Shown here in pieces: positions 44,909-56,924 of a stretch of 64,000 nucleotides of DNA (its first letter is position 1; each line of letters opens with the position of its first letter). The position numbers and the translations under genes were made by a program. The notes below the pieces were generated by a model, which worked only from the letters and a program-made list of their open reading frames with translations, was not told the DNA's origin and made no database searches. This DNA is from Phycisphaerae bacterium (GTDB taxonomy: Bacteria; Planctomycetota; Phycisphaerae; UBA1845; Fen-1342), in the NCBI GenBank assembly GCA_050115495.1, contig JASFQK010000010.1, forward strand, positions 96,360-160,359. The letters are read 5' to 3'.

Positions 44909-44981
<73 letters not shown>

Positions 44982-44992
44982 GTGCCTAACTT

Positions 44993-45035
44993 ACGCAGGA
45001 TCAAGGAGTTGGCTCCGGATCCTGCGTTTTCTTTT
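44993..45035 (+). terminator. Intrinsic terminator after the tRNA
   Basis: acgcaggatc..ggag-ttgg-ctcc..gatcctgcgt followed by tttctttt. Confidence 0.75.
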
Positions 45036-45270
45036 GCGCAGGGGTGACCAAAAGGTGCCCACCGCAAACGTCGCAGGGTCCGGAGGGATCAAGGAGACCC
45101 TGCGATGCCCCTCCCGTTCTGGTTTGACGGCCAAGTGTTCAAGACCGGCAGTCGTGCTCCTCCGACCTAACGCTCGTCGAGCATGGGACTCGGCGGTTAC
45201 ACGTGGATTCCGTCGCCTTCGACACAAGGCCGACGTATTGTCTGATCACCCGCAGGACGCCGGTGACGTG

Positions 45271-45720
45271 ATGCTCCAGCTCCGCCGCATGTTGCCCGCG
45301 CAGGGTTGGCTGACCGAACGGATGGCCAGGCTCCGGACACGCGCGCACCTTGCCCGGAAGGGACACATTGCCCGAATTGATGAACTGAAAAGCACTGTCG
45401 GCGAATTGCCGGCCAGAGCGAAGGCCAAGGTCTCGCGTGAGCTCCGCGCCAGGTACCACGAACTAAAGATCGACGAGCGCATCGAACGCCTTGACCGCCT
45501 GGTGGCAAGCAACGAACGATCGGTGCGTGACCTGACACAGCAAGCTCAAGCTCGTCTCGCCAGCCATGACTATCAGAAGCTAGTCGACATTCTCAAAGCC
45601 GCGGAGAACACTCAGAAGCGCTGCACGCGCTTGATCAACCTCATCGAGCGCACAGAAAAGAAACTGCTTGCCGTCGCGGAGAACGCCGCCAAAAAAGCCC
45701 GCGAGGTGAACGATGCGTGA
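45271..45720 (+). CDS. Hypothetical coiled-coil protein
   Basis: Heptad-like helical ORF; stop overlaps the next GTG; start uncertain. Confidence 0.65.
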   Translation: MLQLRRMLPAQGWLTERMARLRTRAHLARKGHIARIDELKSTVGELPARAKAKVSRELRARYHELKIDERIERLDRLVASNERSVRDLTQQAQARLASHDYQKLVDILKAAENTQKRCTRLINLIERTEKKLLAVAENAAKKAREVNDA

Positions 45721-46094
45721 ACTACGCTCCTACTGCCCGGCTGGAGGACCGCCTTGGTCCACACGAGCCACCGTACCGTTCTCGGGGAGAAGCCCAGGTC
45801 GGCCGGCTCCTTGATCGCTCCGGAATACCCTTCTTCTACGAACAGCCTACGCTCATCTACGACCGCGGCCGCCACCGGATCTGGTACCCGGACTTCACGT
45901 TGCCAACGTACAACGGTCTGATCGTCGAGTATGCCGGCATGATGGACATCCCCAGCTATGCCGCCGGCATCCACCACAAGGTCGTCACGTACGCAACTAA
46001 CGGCATTCCGGCGTTGTTCATCTATCCCACCGACCTGCAGCACCGCGCGTGGCCAACACGGTTCATAAGGCATGTCTACAAGACTATTCACTGA
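45717..46094 (+). CDS. Small PD-(D/E)xK-like nuclease domain protein
   Basis: RSRGE..LL..GIPF.YEQ..WYPDFTLP..IVEYAG. Confidence 0.75.
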   Translation: MNYAPTARLEDRLGPHEPPYRSRGEAQVGRLLDRSGIPFFYEQPTLIYDRGRHRIWYPDFTLPTYNGLIVEYAGMMDIPSYAAGIHHKVVTYATNGIPALFIYPTDLQHRAWPTRFIRHVYKTIH

Positions 46095-46216
46095 TCCAGG
46101 TACGCCACGACGCAACGCTCTGCCGCGTGGCCGTCCGGCCACCTGAACATCGATTGTGCAAGACCCGCTTCTCCCACTCCCGCGGACACTGGCGCACGTT
46201 GCACCAAGCGCGGAAC

Positions 46217-49189
46217 TCAGCTCGCCTCCGCCTGCGGATTCTCGCCAGCACTCACAAGCTCGTCGACAATTCGGTTGAAACCGTCTCGACAACATATGAC
46301 ATCCTGGCACGCTCGATCAGGATGCATGCCTGTAATCACACTGTGGCGTTCCGTCTGGAGCCACGACGACAGATCGCTGGGATACGGGCATCCATAGTCT
46401 GGATCAAGTCGTCTGTACGAGCAGAACGAGATCCATGCGTCCTCAGTTGGACGCATCCTGACGCCGCATACTACCCTCTCCTCACTTCTTCCCTCACCAC
46501 ATGATGAGATGACCATGCGATAATACGCAGAATAGCACACTCCGTATTCCTTTGGAGGGATAAACACACTCCTTCTGGACGGTGTCGTCGATGCCAGCCA
46601 CTCCTCAAACCATCGCGGCGTAAGCGCAAAGCCGCTGAATTCCTTGAGCACCTGCCTCATTATCTCTATGTCCTCGGTAGAATACTCGAGATACGGTTCT
46701 CGGCCGCACTCGCGAGTAACCGGCCGAAGAACCAATGCCGTAGCGCGCCCTGCCCGCCACTCCTTGCACGCGTCGGCCAGTCCCGAGATAACATGTGGAT
46801 GAAGCAAGATAGAGATCGTTGCCGTTACCCCACTGCGCAGCAGCTTCTTGATCCCACCGACGGTTGCATCCCAGAGTCCGTTTTCATGGTCTAATCCATG
46901 GCTCCTTGCATGGGCCTGAGCCGAGCAACCGTCGAGGGATACACGCAAGTGGACACGACGTCTCGTTTCTATTAACGCAGCTTGAATGACATCCTCGGCA
47001 AGTCTGCTTCCGTTGGTCACAACTAAGACATCATACCCCATTGCCGCCACGACACGCAACAACGTCGCAAACTCTGGATGGAGCGTCGGCTCTCCGCCGT
47101 AGAAACCCACACGACGACAACCCGCCGCCTTCAGGTCGGCACAAATAGACAAACACCTATCAAGCGACAAGAACACTCTCTTGCCGCGCAACTCTCCTTC
47201 AATACAGCCTTGGCAACTGTAATTGCAGGCGGCCACCGGGTCAATGTGAACCGTATCAAGCGGAACATCAGCCCAACGGTTCTTCTGCCTGAAACGCACT
47301 CCCATGCTGGCGGCCAGTCCATCAGCCATTCCTATCGATGTTTTCAAGCATAGTTCCCTGAAGTGCACCGGACTATCCAGGAACTGCATGTGACGGACGC
47401 CTTCGATTCGAATGGGTTCCTCCGGGATCTCATATACAGCCTCGAAGTACATAGGAATACGCCCATCACACTGGCCCGCCAAGCTCTGAAGGAATCTCTC
47501 GATGTTTTCCCGTTGGAATAGCATGGCTCCCGCATAAGTGGCCTTGCTATGAATACCCGCCACAATCCAAATCGCCGTCTCCACATCGAGATCGGGAACT
47601 TCCACATTGCATAAACCATGACTCGGACCGATCCCAGGAAGTCGCATGAGAAGCAGGTAGTCCGTGAAGCGATCAAACAACTCCTGGTCCGGTTTCTTGT
47701 TGGAACGAAACCGGCGGTCGGCCCCGATTTCGAGGTGCTGTTGGACAGCCTCCTGTGCCCGTTCGTCGACAAAGCGAACGAGGCCACCCGCCAGATACAC
47801 ATGGTAGCGATCAAGAAGTGAGGCAACGTAGGGATTGTAGTGCGGTGAATCCACGAGGAATACTACGCCCTTGTTCTCGAACTTCTGCCATTCTGTTGGT
47901 TCTCCCCGATCGATGCGAACCAGATGCCCTTTGACCTGATCGAGCATTCTTAGCAGGGCCGCATTGATGGTTTCGCCCGGTGACAATACTCCGAAGCTCT
48001 CAAACTTGCGTGATTCACAGTGAGCAACGACTGCCCAACCGGCATGTGGGCTAGTTCCGAGGAATCGCTCCGTACCCACCTGGGCGTCATGAATGCTCTG
48101 CTTGAACTCACCAAACGATACGCCGTGTTGCATTGCAAGGGTCTCACAAGCGTGCTCCTGCGGCGCACTCCAACCGTTCTCTCGGTCGAATAGGCCGTCG
48201 GTAATCCACGCATAGGTGCGCCGAACGGCCTTGGATTGCTCGGGCTGGCCAAACTCGAGACGCAGCACCTGGTAATGATTGCCCTCCGGTAACGTGTAGC
48301 CATGGAGAAAGGAGTGGCCTGTCGCCAGCGTGAAGAGGCTCGGCTGGGCACCCAAAAGCGTCGTTGTCTTGCCGCTGGGTGCATGTGTGTGCCCTGAAAG
48401 AAGTAGGCGAAAGCGGTGCCGGACCAGCCAAGCCATCAACTGGTCACGGTCCACTTGGTCGGGTACTGACGGATCGGGCGCAGGGAGATCCTCGAGATGA
48501 TGGTGCATGAGGGCTATCCGAAGTGTGTGAGGTTGGTCGTCGAGAAGACCGGTCAATGCGCGTAAGTCCGAACGTGTGAGGACCGGGTGGGTGTCAATCG
48601 GAGGAGCTGATGCTGGGCTCACCCCGTCGCTAGCACCATACCAGTGGATGTTGATGCAGCTATTCAGGTCGATGATCTGGGCGCAGAAAGGAAACGTGAT
48701 GCGAACGGTGACGTAGGGACGGTTAAGTGTGAAACCGCGCGCGAAGTGAGCATATTCTGTGAGTTCTTCTAGGAATATCTTGAAGGCGCGGTACTTGGGG
48801 TGCGACTCCTGAGCAATGGAAGCAGGCTGGCTGGGATCGTACGGGCATAGCTCGAGATCGTGGTTGCCAGGTATACAGATTATGTGGTCAGGGCGCAAAA
48901 CGCTGTTCTTGAGTGCGTCACGGAAGCACAGACGGAGACTCCGGAAGAACTCGAGCGCGGCCTGAAATTCACTCCATTCATGGTGGTGTGTGATGTCGCC
49001 TGTAACGAGAAGAAAAGTCTCTTCTGTGAGAAATGGAATCGAGTACGCGATCTCCACCTCATGCAGGTCAGCGGCGAGGCGCTCGGCGGTGACGCGTGCG
49101 AGGTCCGCAGAGGGATGGTGAGCATGCCCTTCCCGTGGGGGCTTACCGATGTGGAGATCGGAAAGATGGACTAGCGTGAGTCCGGCCAT
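46217..49189 (-). CDS. Calcineurin-like metallophosphoesterase / central alpha-beta domain / radical SAM (Twitch-like) fusion, about 990 aa
   Basis: HLSDLH, VTGD, PGNHD, HHH, GHTH; then CNYSCQGC, GGEPTLHP, VTNG, RVSLDG and Cys-containing tail; ggagg RBS before ATG 49189. Confidence 0.88.
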   Translation of the reverse strand: MAGLTLVHLSDLHIGKPPREGHAHHPSADLARVTAERLAADLHEVEIAYSIPFLTEETFLLVTGDITHHHEWSEFQAALEFFRSLRLCFRDALKNSVLRPDHIICIPGNHDLELCPYDPSQPASIAQESHPKYRAFKIFLEELTEYAHFARGFTLNRPYVTVRITFPFCAQIIDLNSCINIHWYGASDGVSPASAPPIDTHPVLTRSDLRALTGLLDDQPHTLRIALMHHHLEDLPAPDPSVPDQVDRDQLMAWLVRHRFRLLLSGHTHAPSGKTTTLLGAQPSLFTLATGHSFLHGYTLPEGNHYQVLRLEFGQPEQSKAVRRTYAWITDGLFDRENGWSAPQEHACETLAMQHGVSFGEFKQSIHDAQVGTERFLGTSPHAGWAVVAHCESRKFESFGVLSPGETINAALLRMLDQVKGHLVRIDRGEPTEWQKFENKGVVFLVDSPHYNPYVASLLDRYHVYLAGGLVRFVDERAQEAVQQHLEIGADRRFRSNKKPDQELFDRFTDYLLLMRLPGIGPSHGLCNVEVPDLDVETAIWIVAGIHSKATYAGAMLFQRENIERFLQSLAGQCDGRIPMYFEAVYEIPEEPIRIEGVRHMQFLDSPVHFRELCLKTSIGMADGLAASMGVRFRQKNRWADVPLDTVHIDPVAACNYSCQGCIEGELRGKRVFLSLDRCLSICADLKAAGCRRVGFYGGEPTLHPEFATLLRVVAAMGYDVLVVTNGSRLAEDVIQAALIETRRRVHLRVSLDGCSAQAHARSHGLDHENGLWDATVGGIKKLLRSGVTATISILLHPHVISGLADACKEWRAGRATALVLRPVTRECGREPYLEYSTEDIEIMRQVLKEFSGFALTPRWFEEWLASTTPSRRSVFIPPKEYGVCYSAYYRMVISSCGEGRSEERVVCGVRMRPTEDAWISFCSYRRLDPDYGCPYPSDLSSWLQTERHSVITGMHPDRACQDVICCRDGFNRIVDELVSAGENPQAEAS

Positions 49190-49669
49190 TGGGGAAACCT
49201 CCAGCAAGCAACAGAGAAGAGTGAACAGAGCCGCGGCGGAGTTGTGAGGAGAGGGTAGTCTACGCAAGGTGCCAGCAGGTCATCCAGATCAGAAGGCGAG
49301 GCAGGGCGAGTACGGCGCGAACGTGCTCGCAGAATGCGCATGCGGGCGTTGAATGAGAAGGTGCCACCCAATGCGGTCCAGATGTGATGCCTCTCCACCA
49401 TGGGCACGCCCCGTTCGGTCGAGCGGTCACTTGCGCCGTGCCAAGCCGGCGATGCGCCGACAACGATGCCACGAAACATGCGCAATCGGCTTCGCGAGAT
49501 GCTCATATCATGTACTCACCGTGTGACGAGAGCAAGGACCGCGAGCTGCCCGCCGGAGACGAGCACTGAAATCAGCAGAGGGGCAGAGGGTGAGTCGGTC
49601 TTTGGAAAGGTCAGCTTGGTTGTATGCAGAGCTCATTCGAGATCACTCGCACTACGTGATCGCCGCTGC

Positions 49670-50030
49670 TCAGGACACGTCAAGCCAGGTCTTGAGTTCG
49701 ACCTCTGGGGGGTCGCCTAGGCGAGGCAACGTCCGGTCGCAGGCGGCGATCGCCGCGGGCGACGTCGCCAGCAGCACGGCACGGTCAAAGCGGGCGCCGT
49801 GCAGTTTCAACAGGTTGGCCGCAATATCCGACTTCCCTGTTTCGATCTCGATGGCGACGCGTTCACCGGGGCGAGTGGCCAGCACATCGATGACGCCACC
49901 ACCAGGCACGGTATACTCCAGGGTCACGTCGAAGCCGCATTGCTCAAAATGTGCGGCGGTTCGTTGCACCCAGAAGGCGTGTTCGACGCTTGCGCGGGGG
50001 CGAGGGCCCGGATCAAGCCCCAGAACCGGT
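49670..50030 (-). pseudogene. 5'-truncated C-terminal restriction-endonuclease-like domain
   Basis: Frame reads LGLDPGPRPRASVEHAFWVQR..EY..GGGVIDV..VAIEIETGKS; it stays open upstream of GTG 49969 with no credible start or RBS. Confidence 0.6.
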
Positions 50031-50649
50031 GCGCAACCGTCTCCAGCAGCAGCAACATCAGACGCCGGTTCGCATGGGCGGAGAAGTGTGTGTCCGAAGG
50101 GGTGTTCGCCGAGGAAACCGGACCGAAGCAGTGTGGTTTGGCGACAGGGAAGTGGCCAAGCGGTTTGGGGGCAGTGGGGTGGGCGAAATACTAACGGTCC
50201 TCCGCCGTGTCGTGCGGTGGTTGTTCGGGGGGGGCTTCGTCACATCCGGTCCTCGTTGCTAAAGGACTTGCAGCGATGGAAATCGTTTTAGTGTTTGGCC
50301 GGGGCCGGCTCGCGGTACGGTGAAGCGTGTGGGTGGCTCGGCTGGCTTGGCCGGGGCGGCGGTGGCGGGGTGGAACGGGTTATTGCGGACCTTGAAGATT
50401 ATGTGGGGTGGCTTGGTGGCGGTGGTCGACGGCGGGGCGGGTACGCGGGTGACGCCGGGGGGCGTTTTATCGGGGGCATCCACGGTCTTCGCCGCCGGTC
50501 GCTGCTATACTTACGGCGTTTGGGTCGCCGTGCGGTTGACGGCTGGATGGCGGACACTCAGAATCTGGTTCCAATGCGCGGAAGGAGGGATACTGCGTAC
50601 GTCGCCGGGGTTCTCCGCGGCGCGACGCCCCTTGCGAGGAGGCACTCTG

Positions 50650-52926
50650 GTGGCTGAAACGTCGGTGCGGCCCGCCTCGGTCGCAGATTTCACGTTCAAA
50701 GTGGGCGACAAGTCCACCGAAGACCTCAAGGTCAGCGGCTTCGAAGGGACCGAGGGGATCAGCCGGCTGTTCCGGTTTCGGATCATGCTCTGTTCGAGCG
50801 AGCCGGCCATCGCATTCGATGAGATCGTCGGGAAGCCGTGCGTCCTCGAGATCGCCGGCGCGAGCGGATCGCGGTTCGTCAACGGCATCGTGCGGCGGTT
50901 CGAGCGCAGCGGCGAGGGCTCATCGCTGACGTACTACACCGCGGTCGTCGTTCCGGTGCACTGGCTGCTGACGCGGCGGCACAAGTCGCGCATCTTCCAG
51001 GAGCACAACTGCCCGGACATGACCGTTCCCGGGATCATCAAGAAGGTGCTCCAGGACGCGGGCATACCGGAGGACAACTACCGGTTTGCGCTGCAGGGGA
51101 GCTACGACAAGCGCGAATACGTGGTGCAATACCGCGAATCGGAGATGAACTTCATCGCGCGGCTCATGGAAGAGGAGGGCATCTTCTTCTTCTTCGAGCA
51201 CACGGTCGACGGGCACAAGCTGGTCTTCGGCGACAGCCCGGTCGCCCACGTCCCCGCGCCGAATCAGGCGGAATTGGTCTATCGCGACCGAACCGGACTC
51301 GTCGCGGAGACCGAGCAGGAGCACATTCACGAAATCCGGGACGGACAGGAGATCCGGATCGGCGCGGTACGGCTCGACGACCACAACTACGAGCAGCCGC
51401 AGGTCGATCTGATGGCGACCGCCGCCGCCTCCCAGTACACCTCGCTCGAATACAGCGACTATCCCGGCGAGTACGTCGACAAGTCGGTCGGGGCGCGCTA
51501 CGCGACGATCCGCCTGGAGGAGTTCCAGTGTCGCCGGTGGATTCAGCACATGGGCGCGAGCGCACGGGCGCTGCTACCCGGCTACAAGTTCACGCTAGCC
51601 GAACACCCCGTCGCGGCGATGAACCGCGATTACCTGGTGACGCGCGTGGTGCACACGGCTCGGCAGCCGCAGAGCCTTGATGCCGAAGCCGGTGCGGGGT
51701 ACGGCGCGGAGTACAAGGCCGAGCTGCGCGCGATCCCGGCGGATGTGCCCTTCCGACCCGCGCGAACCACGCGACGCCCTCGCATTCACGGCACGCAGAC
51801 GGCGATCGTCGCCGGTCCGGCCGGCGAGGAGATCTACACCGACAAGTACGGCCGAGTGAAGGTCCAGTTCCACTGGGACCGTGAGGGGGAGCACAACGAG
51901 AAGAGCTCACGCTGGGTGCGCGTCAGTCAGGGTTCGGCGGGTGGGCAGTACGGCATGATGTTCCTGCCGCGTGTCGGGCAGGAGGTCGTGGTCGATTTTC
52001 TGGAAGGCGACCCGGACCAACCGATCATCACCGGCCGCGTCTACAACGACGACCTGATGCCGCCATACACGCTGCCGGACGAGAAGACCAAGAGCGTGAT
52101 CAAGACGCACAGCTCGAAGGGCGGCGGCGGGACCAACGAGATCCGCTTCGAGGACCTCAAAGACAGCGAGCAGGTCCTGGTCTACGCGCAGAAGGACCTG
52201 CACGTTCGGGTGAACAACGACCGGGTCGAGAACGTCGACCACAACCGTCACCTGACCGTCAAGGAAAACAAGTTCGAGCTGGTCAAGCAGAAGAAGCACG
52301 TCGAGGTCAAGCTCGACCACAACGAAAAGATCGGCGGCGATATGTCGCTCGAGGTCGCCGGCGCTGTTTCCGAGGATTTCGGCGGCAACCACAGCGAGAA
52401 TACGGGCGGCAATCTCTATCTCAAGGCGGGACAGAACACGGTGATCGAGGCCGCGATGGGCCTGACGCTGAAGGTCGGCAGCAACTTCATCAAGATCGAC
52501 AGCAGCGGCATCGCGATCGTCGGCACGATGACCAAGATCAACAGCGGCGGCGCCGCCGGCAGCGGCACGGCCGGCACCGTCAACACGCCCGAGGAGACGA
52601 TCGACGCCGACGCGGCGGTACCGGGAGCCGACGTCACGTACGCGGCCACGCCCACTCCAGACGAAGCCCTGGAGGTCGAGCAGGGCGAGTTCACGCCGGC
52701 CGAATACGAGATGGAGGAGAAGATCACCTCGTGGGTCGAGATTGAGCTGGTCGACGAGGCTGGCCAGCCAGTCCCCAACGAGCTGTATGAGCTGACCTAC
52801 CCGGACGGCAGGAAGCGTCGCGGCAAGCTTGATGAAAGGGGGCAAGCGCATATCGGCCTGCCGGAGCCGATTACGGTCGAAGTGACCTTCCCGCACTTGG
52901 ATGCGGATGCCTGGGAGCGTGCATGA
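50650..52926 (+). CDS. vgrG: Type VI secretion spike protein VgrG with a C-terminal transthyretin-like extension
   Basis: EGISRLF, RIFQ, VQYRES..F..RLMEEEG, QTA.V.GP.GEEI.TD.YGRVKVQFHWDR, PRVGQEV.V.FLEGDPD.P, NEIRFED; gaggagg RBS before GTG 50650. Confidence 0.96.
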   Translation: MAETSVRPASVADFTFKVGDKSTEDLKVSGFEGTEGISRLFRFRIMLCSSEPAIAFDEIVGKPCVLEIAGASGSRFVNGIVRRFERSGEGSSLTYYTAVVVPVHWLLTRRHKSRIFQEHNCPDMTVPGIIKKVLQDAGIPEDNYRFALQGSYDKREYVVQYRESEMNFIARLMEEEGIFFFFEHTVDGHKLVFGDSPVAHVPAPNQAELVYRDRTGLVAETEQEHIHEIRDGQEIRIGAVRLDDHNYEQPQVDLMATAAASQYTSLEYSDYPGEYVDKSVGARYATIRLEEFQCRRWIQHMGASARALLPGYKFTLAEHPVAAMNRDYLVTRVVHTARQPQSLDAEAGAGYGAEYKAELRAIPADVPFRPARTTRRPRIHGTQTAIVAGPAGEEIYTDKYGRVKVQFHWDREGEHNEKSSRWVRVSQGSAGGQYGMMFLPRVGQEVVVDFLEGDPDQPIITGRVYNDDLMPPYTLPDEKTKSVIKTHSSKGGGGTNEIRFEDLKDSEQVLVYAQKDLHVRVNNDRVENVDHNRHLTVKENKFELVKQKKHVEVKLDHNEKIGGDMSLEVAGAVSEDFGGNHSENTGGNLYLKAGQNTVIEAAMGLTLKVGSNFIKIDSSGIAIVGTMTKINSGGAAGSGTAGTVNTPEETIDADAAVPGADVTYAATPTPDEALEVEQGEFTPAEYEMEEKITSWVEIELVDEAGQPVPNELYELTYPDGRKRRGKLDERGQAHIGLPEPITVEVTFPHLDADAWERA

Positions 52927-53801
52927 TGGGCGATCCAAGGAGCGGATCCGGTCAGGATGATTTCCAGAAGCGTCTGGAGCGATCGCTTCAGGAGGTGCGG
53001 AACAAGCCGAAGCGGGAGGCGGCTGCTCCGTCGCCGGCTGCTCCCGCCGCCGGCTTCGAACAGCGTCTCAAAGAGGCGATGTCGCAATCCCAGGGTGGCG
53101 GGACGGCCGAGCCCGCCCGGGCCAGCCGGGACAGCGACGAGCACAGCGGCGGCCCGGTTGGTCAGGGCGACCACGTGGTTCGCCAAGGCGAGTGCATCTC
53201 GTCGATCGCGAAGAAGCGCGGGCTCTTCTGGGAGAACATCTGGAACGACGCCGCCAACAGCGAGTTGCGGTCGGCGCGCAAGAGCCCGAACGTGCTGCTG
53301 CCGGGCGACCGCGTGACGATTCCGGACAAGGAGCGCAAGGACGAGCCGATCGCTCCGGAAGAGCGGCACCGGTTCGTCCGCCGCGGTGAGCCGTCGTCGA
53401 TCAACATGTGTTTCACGGAGCTCGGCAAGCCGCTCGCCGGCCGTTCGTACGAGGCGTACGTTGACGGCAAGCTCGCGCAGGAAGGTTCGCTCGATGGCAA
53501 CGGCGGCGTCGAAGTCCCGCTGCCGTCGAATGCGGCGCGGGCGGAATTCGTCGTCTACGACGAGCACGGCATCGAGAAGCGGCACAAGATCCAACTGCGG
53601 CAGGTGCCGCCGATCAGTGAGCTTTGCGGCGTGCAGGCGCGACTGAATAACCTCGGTTACCCGTGTGGCCACGATGCGAGGCGTTTCACGCCGATGATCG
53701 CGCGGGCGGTCGAGGCATTCCAGCGCGACTACAAGCTGCCGATCAACGGATTGCCGGATGAGACGATGCGGAAGAAGCTGGTGGAGGTCCACGGTTGCTG
53801 A
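52923..53801 (+). CDS. LysM-like plus peptidoglycan-binding domain protein (vgrG-associated)
   Basis: HVVRQGECISSIA..PNVLLPGD..IP; GVQARLNNLGY..AVEAFQ..LPING..D; ATGA overlap with vgrG. Confidence 0.85.
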   Translation: MMGDPRSGSGQDDFQKRLERSLQEVRNKPKREAAAPSPAAPAAGFEQRLKEAMSQSQGGGTAEPARASRDSDEHSGGPVGQGDHVVRQGECISSIAKKRGLFWENIWNDAANSELRSARKSPNVLLPGDRVTIPDKERKDEPIAPEERHRFVRRGEPSSINMCFTELGKPLAGRSYEAYVDGKLAQEGSLDGNGGVEVPLPSNAARAEFVVYDEHGIEKRHKIQLRQVPPISELCGVQARLNNLGYPCGHDARRFTPMIARAVEAFQRDYKLPINGLPDETMRKKLVEVHGC

Positions 53802-53846
53802 AGGCGCCGGGCACGGAGGCGTGACGCCACTATCGAGACGTGAGAG

Positions 53847-55916
53847 ATGACAGTTACCAACACAGACATCATGGCCGGACCGGCGCAGTCGACCCACCCG
53901 CGCGGCATCCGCGCGGCGCGCGTCGGTGAGTTCGCCGATCAGCTCAAGCTTAGCGACGTCGCCCCGAAGTTCGGGATGACGGTCGAGGAGCTGTGCAAGC
54001 TGACGTTCGGCACGGGGAGTTTGCAGGAGTGCGAGGAGTTCCTGGAGGAGGACTGGGGGCTGCCCGACGCCGTGCTCGACTCCAGCGTTTCGCTCTGGGT
54101 GTTCAAGTACGACCAGGACGGCAACGAGATCAAAGCCGTCGAGGACGTGGAGCTGGGCGAGACGTACTTCGAGCCGCCGGCGCGACGGCCTCCGCAGGTG
54201 CAGCCCACCGGTGCGATCCAGGGTCTGGGTGCTTCGCCGGTCCGGAACACGATCGACATCAAGTTCAAGAACGGCGACATCCTGCTGTGCCATCATGCGG
54301 GCGACGAATTCATCGCCAACATGTCGCTGGCCTGGCCCACGCACGCGGGGATCGTCACCGACGGCGACAACGACGGCGCCACCGACGCGATGCCGGGCAA
54401 ATGGCGCTCGGAGACGGGCTGGGCGGGGGACGGGCGCAGCCTCGTCGTCGATAACCTGCCGGTGCTGATCGGCAACGATGCCTTCTTTGACGAGGGGATT
54501 ACGCCCAGCGGCGGCCTGGTGTATCGCTACAAGGGTGGCGGCCAGCAGGCGATGGGGAACAAGCGGGTCCAGCAGGTCAACAAGAAACGCAGGAAAGGGC
54601 TGGGGCTCTTCGGGTTCCTCCGCAAGAAGGACAAGGCCAAGGTCGTCGAGACCGAGGCCAACCGCGAGATGCTCGCCCGGCAGGTCGCCGAAGCCGCCGC
54701 CCGGTGGGCTCGTTCGCAGGTCGGCAGGAACTACAAGTTCAACCTGCGCAGCAACATCATCGGCGTGGAAGGGCCGCGGCACACGGTACGGCGTGACGAG
54801 CACGGCGGGCTCACCACGCCGGACAAGCAGTTCTCCATGACGAAGTGTGCGGAATGCGGCTTCAAGAAGGGCTCCGCCGCGTGCGAAGAGCTGGACGAGC
54901 TGCTGCATGAGTACAAGGACAAGACGAGCGTGAAGCCGCAGCCGGGCAAGCTGCTGTGTCTGAAGTGCGGCCAGCTCGACACCACCCATCTGCACGTCTG
55001 TGATACGTTGGCCGAGGAGTGCGACGAGTGCGGTTTCCACGAGGACTCCTGGGCGTGCAAGTACTTCCACAAGCAGATGGAGCGGCTGACGGACGAAGGG
55101 GAGGACGGCGACGACTGGTTCTACACGAAGAACCAGGTCAAGGACAAGCTCGGGGCGGGCTCGAACGATTTCCTCTGCATGAGCTGCGGCGAGCTCTGGG
55201 GCAAGGACAAGTGCTGCCAGGGCGGCACGACGGAACTGGTCGATGAGGACGGCAGCCGGCGGCCCTACCACTTCAAGTACCAGGGCAACGTCGGCCTGAC
55301 GACGCCAGCGCACAGCATCTACTGCTCCGAGTTCGTCTGGCGGGCCTATCGGTTCGGCGGCGGGGTGACGCTCGTCGAGCCGAAGGAGTTCCTCTACTTC
55401 TATAAGCACCCGAACCGGGCCACCACCTGGCTGCTGTGGCACGTGAGCGTCAAGGACAAGCAGCGGGCCGACCTGCTTCGGAAGGTGGAGAGGTGGCGGT
55501 GGGTGCCCAATGCCATTCTGCGCAAGGTGCTGATGCAGTGGCACTTCAAGGGTGAGTATTCCGGCTACATCCTCGCGCCCGTGCAACTGGCCCAGTCCAA
55601 GTTCGTCGAGAAGGTGCATCGCGTCCCGGCGAAGGAGGGCAAAGAGCAGATCACCGTGCACAACGTTCACAAGAAGAACATCAGCCCGACGGACGTGGCC
55701 AAGGTGCTGATTACCGACCGGGGCGTTCTGCGGTCGCTGCGGTACAACAAGCTGATGAAAGACCTGCTCGGCGGTACCGACCCAAAGGACGATACGCAGT
55801 TCGAGAAGTGGCTGGAGAAGCACGTCAGGGAAACGAGACGATTCGAGAAGTGGCTGGTGGATCACGCCGTTGAGGAGAAGTACACGGCGGATTCGCTGGA
55901 CAAGCCTGTAGGGTGA
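53847..55916 (+). CDS. Candidate T6SS effector: permuted NlpC/P60 (YiiX/YebB-like) domain with a Cys-rich insertion
   Basis: GDILL (aa143), THAGIV (H166), ARSQVGRNY, YCSEFVWRAY (C493). Confidence 0.75.
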   Translation: MTVTNTDIMAGPAQSTHPRGIRAARVGEFADQLKLSDVAPKFGMTVEELCKLTFGTGSLQECEEFLEEDWGLPDAVLDSSVSLWVFKYDQDGNEIKAVEDVELGETYFEPPARRPPQVQPTGAIQGLGASPVRNTIDIKFKNGDILLCHHAGDEFIANMSLAWPTHAGIVTDGDNDGATDAMPGKWRSETGWAGDGRSLVVDNLPVLIGNDAFFDEGITPSGGLVYRYKGGGQQAMGNKRVQQVNKKRRKGLGLFGFLRKKDKAKVVETEANREMLARQVAEAAARWARSQVGRNYKFNLRSNIIGVEGPRHTVRRDEHGGLTTPDKQFSMTKCAECGFKKGSAACEELDELLHEYKDKTSVKPQPGKLLCLKCGQLDTTHLHVCDTLAEECDECGFHEDSWACKYFHKQMERLTDEGEDGDDWFYTKNQVKDKLGAGSNDFLCMSCGELWGKDKCCQGGTTELVDEDGSRRPYHFKYQGNVGLTTPAHSIYCSEFVWRAYRFGGGVTLVEPKEFLYFYKHPNRATTWLLWHVSVKDKQRADLLRKVERWRWVPNAILRKVLMQWHFKGEYSGYILAPVQLAQSKFVEKVHRVPAKEGKEQITVHNVHKKNISPTDVAKVLITDRGVLRSLRYNKLMKDLLGGTDPKDDTQFEKWLEKHVRETRRFEKWLVDHAVEEKYTADSLDKPVG

Positions 55917-55928
55917 TGGTGACGCGTG

Positions 55929-56924
55929 ATGAGCCCACTGAAGCTCGACGAGTTCTGGGAGTACTACGCCGATCAGGAGCTGCTGGACTTCAAGCGCGAT
56001 CCGGCGACCAGTGCTTACAGCGGCACTTGCCGCAACACGGGTACGGGATCAGGCCCGATGGCGGAGGAGGAGATCAGCTTCGCCTTCGATCGGGCCGCGC
56101 TCCTGCGTTACGGCTACGAGCGGGACCGGATGTTCGGGCTCGGCATCTTTGACGAGTTGTCCGAGGCCCTGGCCATGCTCGTGGCGATGCCGTTGATGAA
56201 GGAGGAGTCGATCCCCAATCGCGACCAGCTCGAGCTGGTCTTCCAACTGCTGGGCCTGACGCCGCCGGAATGGGACGTCGAGTATTCGGCGGTCCACGCC
56301 CAGGCTCTGGCGGAGCTGGGCAGAGCGAAGATTTCGCGAGAGAAGGCCGTCGCCCTGATGGACGAGCTCAAGCCGGACGGCGACGACTACGAGGCCTACG
56401 AAGGCACGGGCATGGTCGCCCTGCTCCACGCCGAGCGCGAGCTGCTGCTGAAGGCGTACGCGTTTTGCACGACCGATTCACAGATCACCCGCCAGATTGC
56501 GGCGGTGATCGAGAATCACGAGCGCGAAGACACCATGACCGTGCAGGCCGCGATTTGGGCGCTGGGCCGGCACGACGACAAGGCGGCGATCGACAGCCTG
56601 ATCGCTTTGCTGAATCGCGGTGATTTCCAGTTCCACTGCGCGACCATACAGGAAACGCTGCAGTTCCTGTGCTCGGGCCGCGAGCTGATCCCGATCGCGG
56701 ACGAACAGGAATGGAAGCACTGGAGCGATCGGAAGCAGCAACTGCCCACAAGCCCGGCGGCCTGGACCCAGCACGACGCGACCAGCGTTTTCTGGGAGAA
56801 GCGGCTGCGCGTCGCGCGGCAGTGGTCAGCAGATCGTGCCGAAGGCCAGCTCGCGCAGTTGAAGATGGACGAGGTGCTCCCCGTCCGCCTGGCAGCCGGC
56901 GGACCAGAACAACTGGACGCGTAG
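55929..56924 (+). CDS. HEAT-like helical protein, candidate immunity protein
   Basis: Directly follows the effector; acidic; AAIWALGR..AIDSLIALL motif; no signal peptide seen. Confidence 0.65.
   Translation: MSPLKLDEFWEYYADQELLDFKRDPATSAYSGTCRNTGTGSGPMAEEEISFAFDRAALLRYGYERDRMFGLGIFDELSEALAMLVAMPLMKEESIPNRDQLELVFQLLGLTPPEWDVEYSAVHAQALAELGRAKISREKAVALMDELKPDGDDYEAYEGTGMVALLHAERELLLKAYAFCTTDSQITRQIAAVIENHEREDTMTVQAAIWALGRHDDKAAIDSLIALLNRGDFQFHCATIQETLQFLCSGRELIPIADEQEWKHWSDRKQQLPTSPAAWTQHDATSVFWEKRLRVARQWSADRAEGQLAQLKMDEVLPVRLAAGGPEQLDA

Follow-up and report, generated by a model that had tools for sequence, protein, structure and literature searches.

The window is a 64,000-nucleotide (nt) stretch of the genome of a Phycisphaerae bacterium. 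It carries a gene whose single product joins a calcineurin-like metallophosphoesterase, a middle alpha/beta domain and a radical S-adenosylmethionine (SAM) domain. On sequence grounds, this fusion gene is likely to be a one-gene conflict system, probably anti-phage and of the abortive type; this is because the core of the protein (a sensor-like domain plus the radical SAM domain) is constant in its family while the variable part consists of immune effectors. The gene is real, rare and mobile, and it is apparently undescribed. Literature searches found no account of the architecture; subscription papers, the spelling 'radical-SAM' and preprint supplements could hide one. The available parts of bioRxiv 10.64898/2026.10.19.760177 and PMC10853773 name radical SAM enzymes in unrelated settings only.

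Family members and their N-terminal domains

A word-based homologue search in which 8000 candidates were scored gave 16 matches including the fusion gene itself; of the others, 12 are full-length homologues that align over 98-99% of the length at 35-43% identity, one is a fragment and two have TIR_2 where the phosphoesterase would be. The family was enlarged by a profile search over 1.84 billion representatives, and 44 of the proteins listed were scanned with Pfam. Among 36 members, query included, the N-terminal part is a phosphoesterase in 16, a TIR domain of the CAP12/Pycsar type (PF10137) in nine and TIR_2 in eight; SIR2, an AbiEii-like domain and a hydrophobic segment (the last judged by eye) occur once each. 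Two further members lack the N-terminus, which brings the fused members to 38 overall. The middle domain of the SIR2 member has diverged (partial match, E 1e-6). Phosphoesterase metal ligands are retained in 14-16 of the 16 members, and the TIR catalytic glutamate in every domain aligned (9/9 CAP12, 9/9 TIR_2).

On a tree of 53 radical SAM domains, built by a quick method, the effector types are interleaved; for phosphoesterase, CAP12 and TIR_2 in turn, well-supported branches require no fewer than 3, 2 and 3 changes of label, of which some are due to fragments. The middle and radical SAM domains form a constant core, before which known immune effectors replace one another with their catalytic residues intact. 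Since the N-terminal domain varies while the core stays, the phosphoesterase is probably a swappable effector and not a pathway partner of the radical SAM enzyme. The first-pass annotation, made from the DNA letters and reading frames, suggested a system that modifies a nucleotide or sugar phosphate by radical chemistry and hydrolyses a phospho(di)ester; on this view the two enzymes would work one after the other on a single molecule. The phosphoesterase is the commonest partner (16/36) and both domains look intact; however, unrelated NADases or other domains take its place in 20/36 members, which retain the middle and radical SAM domains, and two phosphoesterase members branch away from the other 14 on the tree. 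Such direct coupling is not supported and is very improbable.

The best NCBIfam match of the phosphoesterase is the anti-phage model DS9_1 (E 5e-24; 85 bits against a cut-off of 420), restricted to profile positions 195-445; the DS8 model gives E 3e-13 (48 bits against 790). Residue N176, between motifs 3 and 4, is kept in 14/16 members at a spacing similar to that of N367 in PUA-Cal-HAD; a substrate asparagine in this place is one criterion of the Calcineurin-CE clade. Of 19 close relatives of the domain that were scanned, four carry a fused NACHT, AAA_16 or TPR domain. PHROGs contains no match for the phosphoesterase part or the middle domain. For P0002, the publicly called gene begins 44 codons too late, which gives 946 amino acids (aa) and drops the first phosphoesterase motif.

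The first-pass annotation described an uninterrupted open reading frame (ORF) of about 990 aa, richer in AT than its flanks, with five phosphoesterase motifs, a complete radical SAM core, a cysteine-bearing tail and an unassigned middle region. All of this is borne out. The phosphoesterase motifs are D11-L-H13, G64-D65, G108-N-H-D111, H229-H230 and G266-H-T-H269; those of the radical SAM domain are C655xxxC659xxC662, GGEP698, TNG725 and SLDG751, followed by cysteines at 885, 923, 961, 966 and 967. Pfam places Metallophos at residues 5-271 (E 4e-12) and Radical_SAM at 653-799 (E 8e-14; 52.7 bits against the PF04055 cut-off of 29.5), with no family matched between them. Third-position GC is 0.61 in the fusion gene and 0.87-0.90 in 4/4 neighbouring genes tested; genome GC is 0.667.

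A chimeric assembly, which the annotation had named as a possible source of error, is ruled out. In a separate assembly of run X1, a single 12.7-kb unitig spans 44946-53000 with 0 differences; this is a check on the assembly and not on distribution, because X1 may be the source sample. The unitig breaks inside the tRNA that lies to the left of the gene, and the DNA link further leftward is not spanned by it. Run X2 contains two short exact pieces within the fusion gene. No RNA run is listed as containing the gene. A promoter scan at the gene gave no signal above chance. A 21-nt inverted repeat with one arm in the coding region (46465-46485) and the other in the leader (49244-49264) is attributed to chance, with equal repeats in 43/592 shuffles and in 4/4 other window segments; a smaller earlier set of 12 shuffles gave 0/12. 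A whole-protein fold predicted without an alignment was discarded (predicted local distance difference test, pLDDT, 37.8).

The family is rare. The middle domain is found in 0/400 other genomes of the host phylum, and the DNA of the fusion gene has no match in the 40 relatives examined. A middle-domain profile gave 13 long matches, 13/13 with a radical SAM domain; its sole short match is a 211-aa piece on a 1.2-kb contig. The searches behind this result were word-limited. Named hosts of family members include Anaerolineales, Myxococcales and Thermodesulfobacteriota records.

Genomic setting

The fusion gene is mobile cargo in a variable slot of an integrative element, whose genes lie on either side of it (Table 1). 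The element consists of gene A, the nuclease-like gene P and a convergent gene H for a HerA-like ATPase; intact copies add Cdc6-like ATPase, tyrosine integrase and nicking-replication (Rep) genes. Gene A occurs in 37/279 genomes of the order, this one included, and has seven matches in one of them (G525). Besides window 45208-50044, the element family is represented by L096, L108, L109 and L143-L171. Thirty-four stretches were examined, 27 of which have both A and H. The slot between A and H is empty in 17/27 (P only, 381-619 bp) and holds extra genes in 10/27 (942-12,418 bp); the A-H distance in the window is 3,974 bp. The filled slots encode, among others, the N and C parts of HipA, a DEDDh nuclease, a pRiA4b ORF3-like protein, WD40 plus AAA, an ADP-ribosylglycohydrolase and DUF123. 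In copy L155 (401-12249), a 12-kb cargo block has genes for a WD40 protein and an AAA ATPase, with matches to the PADLOC models TRIP13 and IetA. The cargo without known family in L143, L145, L158 and L163 provides further defence candidates.

The window copy is a remnant beside tRNA-fMet, with the fusion gene between two truncated element genes. Gene A lacks residues 1-188 and gene H residues 1-581 (the L096 copy of H matches PF01935); P is the only intact element gene around the fusion gene. The tRNA-Met(CAT) carries a 1:72 mismatch and three anticodon-stem G-C pairs, which mark it as an initiator. The first-pass annotation saw the gene as cargo of a tRNA-fMet island. The adjoining initiator-type tRNA agrees with this, but the association is looser than described: the tRNA end has no repeat nearby, and the fusion gene has truncated element genes on both sides. 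Intact copy L157 follows a tRNA-Met with its integrase, in an orientation opposite to that of the window remnant.

Table 1. Window coordinates of the fusion gene, its domains and the surrounding element remnant
Feature	Position	Strand	Basis or remarks
tRNA-Met(CAT), initiator type	44909..44981	+	
Truncated element gene A	45208..45720	+	residues 189-352 of a 358-aa membrane/coiled-coil protein; 59% identity to L096 copy
Element gene P, small endonuclease-like ORF	45717..46094	+	weak PF05367; PHROG endonuclease E 5e-6; after gene A in related elements
Fusion gene, effector - middle domain - radical SAM	46217..49189	-	990 aa, no internal stop
Radical SAM domain, residues 640-990, with a Twitch-like tail of four cysteines	46220..47272	-	PF04055
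Middle alpha/beta domain, proposed ligand sensor, residues 369-625	47315..48085	-	predicted structure, conservation
Metallophosphoesterase, putative effector domain, conflict-type, ~residues 1-340	48170..49189	-	PF00149
Shine-Dalgarno-like GGAGGT	49197..49202	-	7 nt ahead of ATG; same start in homologues
Truncated element gene H, HerA-like ATPase	49670..50044	-	last 126 residues (582-707); 54% identity to L096 copy

Neighbourhoods of other family members were compared at ten independent loci that have 4 kb of flanking sequence; 112 neighbour ORFs were scanned, and many contigs are short. Four of the ten have clear defence or mobile neighbours: type I restriction-modification with McrBC, HEPN, a methylase with a resolvase, and TIR. 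Neighbours of this kind, which the first-pass annotation proposed to look for, are clear at these four longer loci and not at the other six. The family gene is richer in AT than its own locus in 7/10. Apart from one TIR-like pair, no neighbour gene is shared across the flanks, and the family loci scanned contain no conserved operon or glycosyltransferase partner; this argues against a known family of biosynthetic operons, which the annotation had allowed for. Its proposal of a foreign single-gene system of conflict type is supported by the effector swap, the cargo slot and the absence of a conserved partner gene.

Next to the element remnant, window positions 50320-56924 contain a VgrG-like gene followed by genes for LysM/peptidoglycan-binding, C92 papain-like and HEAT-repeat proteins. 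The arrangement suggests the spike of a type VI secretion system accompanied by genes for an effector and for immunity.

Middle and radical SAM domains

The conserved motifs of the middle domain are HC, DSPxxN, DYxxxMRLP, WxxxGxxxK and FE; H390-C391, D447, N452, D510, G545 and K549 are invariant or nearly so. In a model built from 43 sequences (pLDDT 87.9), these residues would line one pocket. VIA-align against 48,161 chains places first a GH115 N-terminal region (Z 8.5; root-mean-square deviation, rmsd, 3.5; 143 aligned), then an archaeal S-layer anchoring domain (Z 8.3; rmsd 3.0; 122 aligned) and BcsB (Z 8.2; rmsd 3.6; 165 aligned). Foldseek against PDB and viral models returns nothing at E 0.001, the domain profile finds nothing below E 0.09 among PDB sequences, and an Atlas search by features gives no usable match. 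Atlas models of similar structure (template modelling score 0.56-0.61) include helix-turn-helix (HTH) and winged-HTH fusions, which would fit a sensor role. The reading of the middle domain as sensor-like in the first-pass annotation is supported. The homodimer prediction for this domain scores 0.36 against a mark of 0.42.

The CxxxCxxC triad of the radical SAM domain is present in 38/38 fused members, as are tail cysteines C885, C923 and C966; C961 is present in 36/38. Stand-alone relatives exist, two seemingly complete ones being nested in the fused clade, and 13/13 have the four tail cysteines. The triad, GGEP, R749, S751, R891, Y925 and R927 are conserved in fused and stand-alone members alike. 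The putative substrate-pocket residues H648, D650, R749, S751, R891, Y925 and R927 are kept in 36-38 of 38 members. An aromatic residue is usual before the third CxxxCxxC cysteine in radical SAM enzymes; in this family the position (window 47204-47227, residues 655-662) is mostly G, T, K or H. Among the Atlas structural neighbours of the domain, the SPASM share ranges from 17 to 98%, and no SPASM/Twitch family passed on the fusion protein.

Of the PDB sequences, BlsE matches best (E 1e-7 with a single sequence, 2e-25 with a profile), over the core only. In NCBIfam, viperin and all other models are far under their cut-offs; the BlsE model scores 44 bits against 400, and viperin NF038283 scores 43 against 180 over residues 653-758 only. 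The viperin match, which covers the first 110 residues of the domain, and the stand-alone relatives would be explained if the radical SAM domain were itself an effector that, like viperin, makes a toxic analogue of a nucleotide, with the N-terminal domain as a backup effector under the same sensor. Viperins are not known to have a four-cysteine tail; given this tail and the low score, such a double effector is quite improbable.

A broad profile that includes distant stand-alone relatives of the radical SAM domain has matches in 95/400 other genomes of the phylum. Among the best 29 of these loci, a Gfo/Idh/MocA oxidoreductase is encoded next to the radical SAM domain or fused to it in at least 18, and genes of heptose/lipopolysaccharide (LPS) sugar-nucleotide type (SIS, cytidylyltransferase-like, Kdo/WaaP kinase or glycosyltransferase) occur in 10; 53 of about 70 ORFs were scanned, and the upstream gene was hidden by ORF picking in 8 loci. 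This is a hint that the wider group performs nucleotide-sugar chemistry. The common uncharacterised pairing of radical SAM and Gfo/Idh/MocA genes among heptose/LPS genes (loci L173-L201) may itself be a nucleotide-sugar modification step; a literature search for radical SAM enzymes with ADP-heptose found nothing relevant. A stand-alone relative at L039:5122-7149 precedes an ORF of RING-like type and a gene for an E1-like ThiF protein.

It is plausible, if tentative, that a modified (sugar-)nucleotide made by the radical SAM domain is sensed by the middle domain and fires the effector. The radical SAM domain would carry two iron-sulphur clusters and perform radical chemistry on a phosphorylated small molecule, perhaps a nucleotide or nucleotide-sugar that appears or accumulates upon infection. 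The product would bind the middle domain, the protein would oligomerise and the effector would be released; here this would be a phosphoesterase draining the nucleotide pool, and in relatives a TIR or SIR2 NADase. The whole would resemble the cyclic oligonucleotide-based anti-phage signalling system (CBASS) or the pyrimidine cyclase system for anti-phage resistance (Pycsar), with synthase, receptor and effector in one chain and a radical enzyme as synthase. This wiring is favoured because the catalytic and putative pocket residues of the radical SAM domain are all retained and because the effector invariably lies next to the middle domain.

The same effector swap would be observed if the radical SAM domain were a guard or decoy, restraining the effector through SAM binding or a restraining product, so that the effector would be set off by a phage that uses up SAM or that binds or inhibits the domain. 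Phage SAM lyases counter type I restriction-modification and McrBC systems, and one family locus adjoins both. In addition, the Atlas clusters nearest to the domain by features include phage radical SAM proteins. However, the pocket residues and tail cysteines, kept in 36-38 of 38 members, exceed the needs of a mere SAM sensor, and no family member was found in the viral contigs or plasmids searched; the single weak phage match has 26% identity over 24% of the query. A guard or decoy is rather unlikely.

Relation to known systems and meaning

Phosphoesterases of this type are needed for defence in DS-8 and DS-9, according to the available part of PMC13092281. From the parts available of both descriptions, we infer that DS-9 and PUA-Cal-HAD are one system. 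In PUA-Cal-HAD, as in the fusion protein, a sensor is joined to a calcineurin-like phosphoesterase (the Calcineurin-CE effector), which depletes deoxynucleoside triphosphates once ligand is bound; the sensor also occurs with TIR and other effectors (bioRxiv 10.64898/2026.01.15.699771, as far as available). In contrast to PUA-Cal-HAD/DS-9, the fusion has no PUA domain and no HAD partner among the scanned ORFs, its effector is N-terminal, and a radical SAM domain is part of the chain. DS-8 and the STAND/NACHT single-gene (Avs-type) systems share with the fusion a one-gene layout with an N-terminal metallophosphatase under a C-terminal module (PMC13092281, same part). Unlike these, the fusion has no Pfam match to NACHT, STAND or a P-loop nucleoside triphosphatase; its C-terminal module is the alpha/beta domain plus the radical SAM domain.

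Cap12 of CBASS and PycTIR of Pycsar follow a signal-gated NADase logic, and nine family members place a PF10137 TIR beside the putative ligand-binding domain. In contrast to CBASS and Pycsar, no cyclase, STING, SAVED or cyclic-nucleotide-binding family is found in the family proteins or the 112 neighbour ORFs, and the candidate synthase is part of the fusion chain itself. Prokaryotic viperins are likewise radical SAM enzymes in a defence setting, with a weak profile match; the fusion differs from them in its score, its four-cysteine tail and its joined effectors. BlsE and the Twitch-type enzymes (BtrN, MoaA group) resemble the radical SAM domain in the best PDB match and the four conserved tail cysteines; beyond the core-only match and low model score, the fusion differs from BlsE in belonging to no biosynthetic cluster. 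The architecture falls outside PUA-Cal-HAD, DS-8, DS-9, Cap12/PycTIR and the viperins; the first-pass annotation had recognised it in no named system. The fusion is probably a variant of the single-gene conflict systems in which effectors are exchanged, with a fair chance that its signal chemistry is new.

Several points weigh against a conflict system with a radical SAM-made signal. The conflict role, the ligand and the product are predictions from sequence and models, and chemistry that is sensitive to oxygen would be a strange means of sending a fast signal. The folds that match the middle domain belong to non-catalytic parts of carbohydrate and cell-envelope proteins; their scores lie near those that a common arrangement would yield, and they reveal no ligand. 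In addition, the sugar-nucleotide hint comes from relatives at ~21-31% identity. Two of the ten family loci have weak neighbours and four have housekeeping or unassigned ones, with no background control. The cargo slot is not purely defensive, because 4/10 filled slots carry proteins of no known family.

Some of the same observations would suit a metabolic or stress-signalling enzyme, for example in envelope sugar modification, with a regulatory N-terminal domain: its distant relatives lie in LPS sugar operons, its middle domain resembles envelope and carbohydrate protein domains, and four of ten loci lack a defence neighbour. Against this stand the missing operon or glycosyltransferase partner, the extreme rarity of the middle domain and an N-terminal set that is a roster of immune effectors. 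A role outside defence is improbable.

Immune messengers known so far come from cyclases, TIR domains and base-modifying enzymes. It is conceivable, and somewhat doubtful, that the family represents an immune class with a radical SAM enzyme as signal synthase, in which a novel messenger is read in cis by a new receptor fold gating exchangeable effectors. If so, the messenger would be new chemistry with a new receptor, and a first function would be assigned both to an unnamed domain that is common and occurs alongside HTH regulators and to an uncharacterised radical SAM group. The natural swap series (phosphoesterase, two TIR types and SIR2) provides ready read-outs, such as NAD loss, in the search for the trigger.

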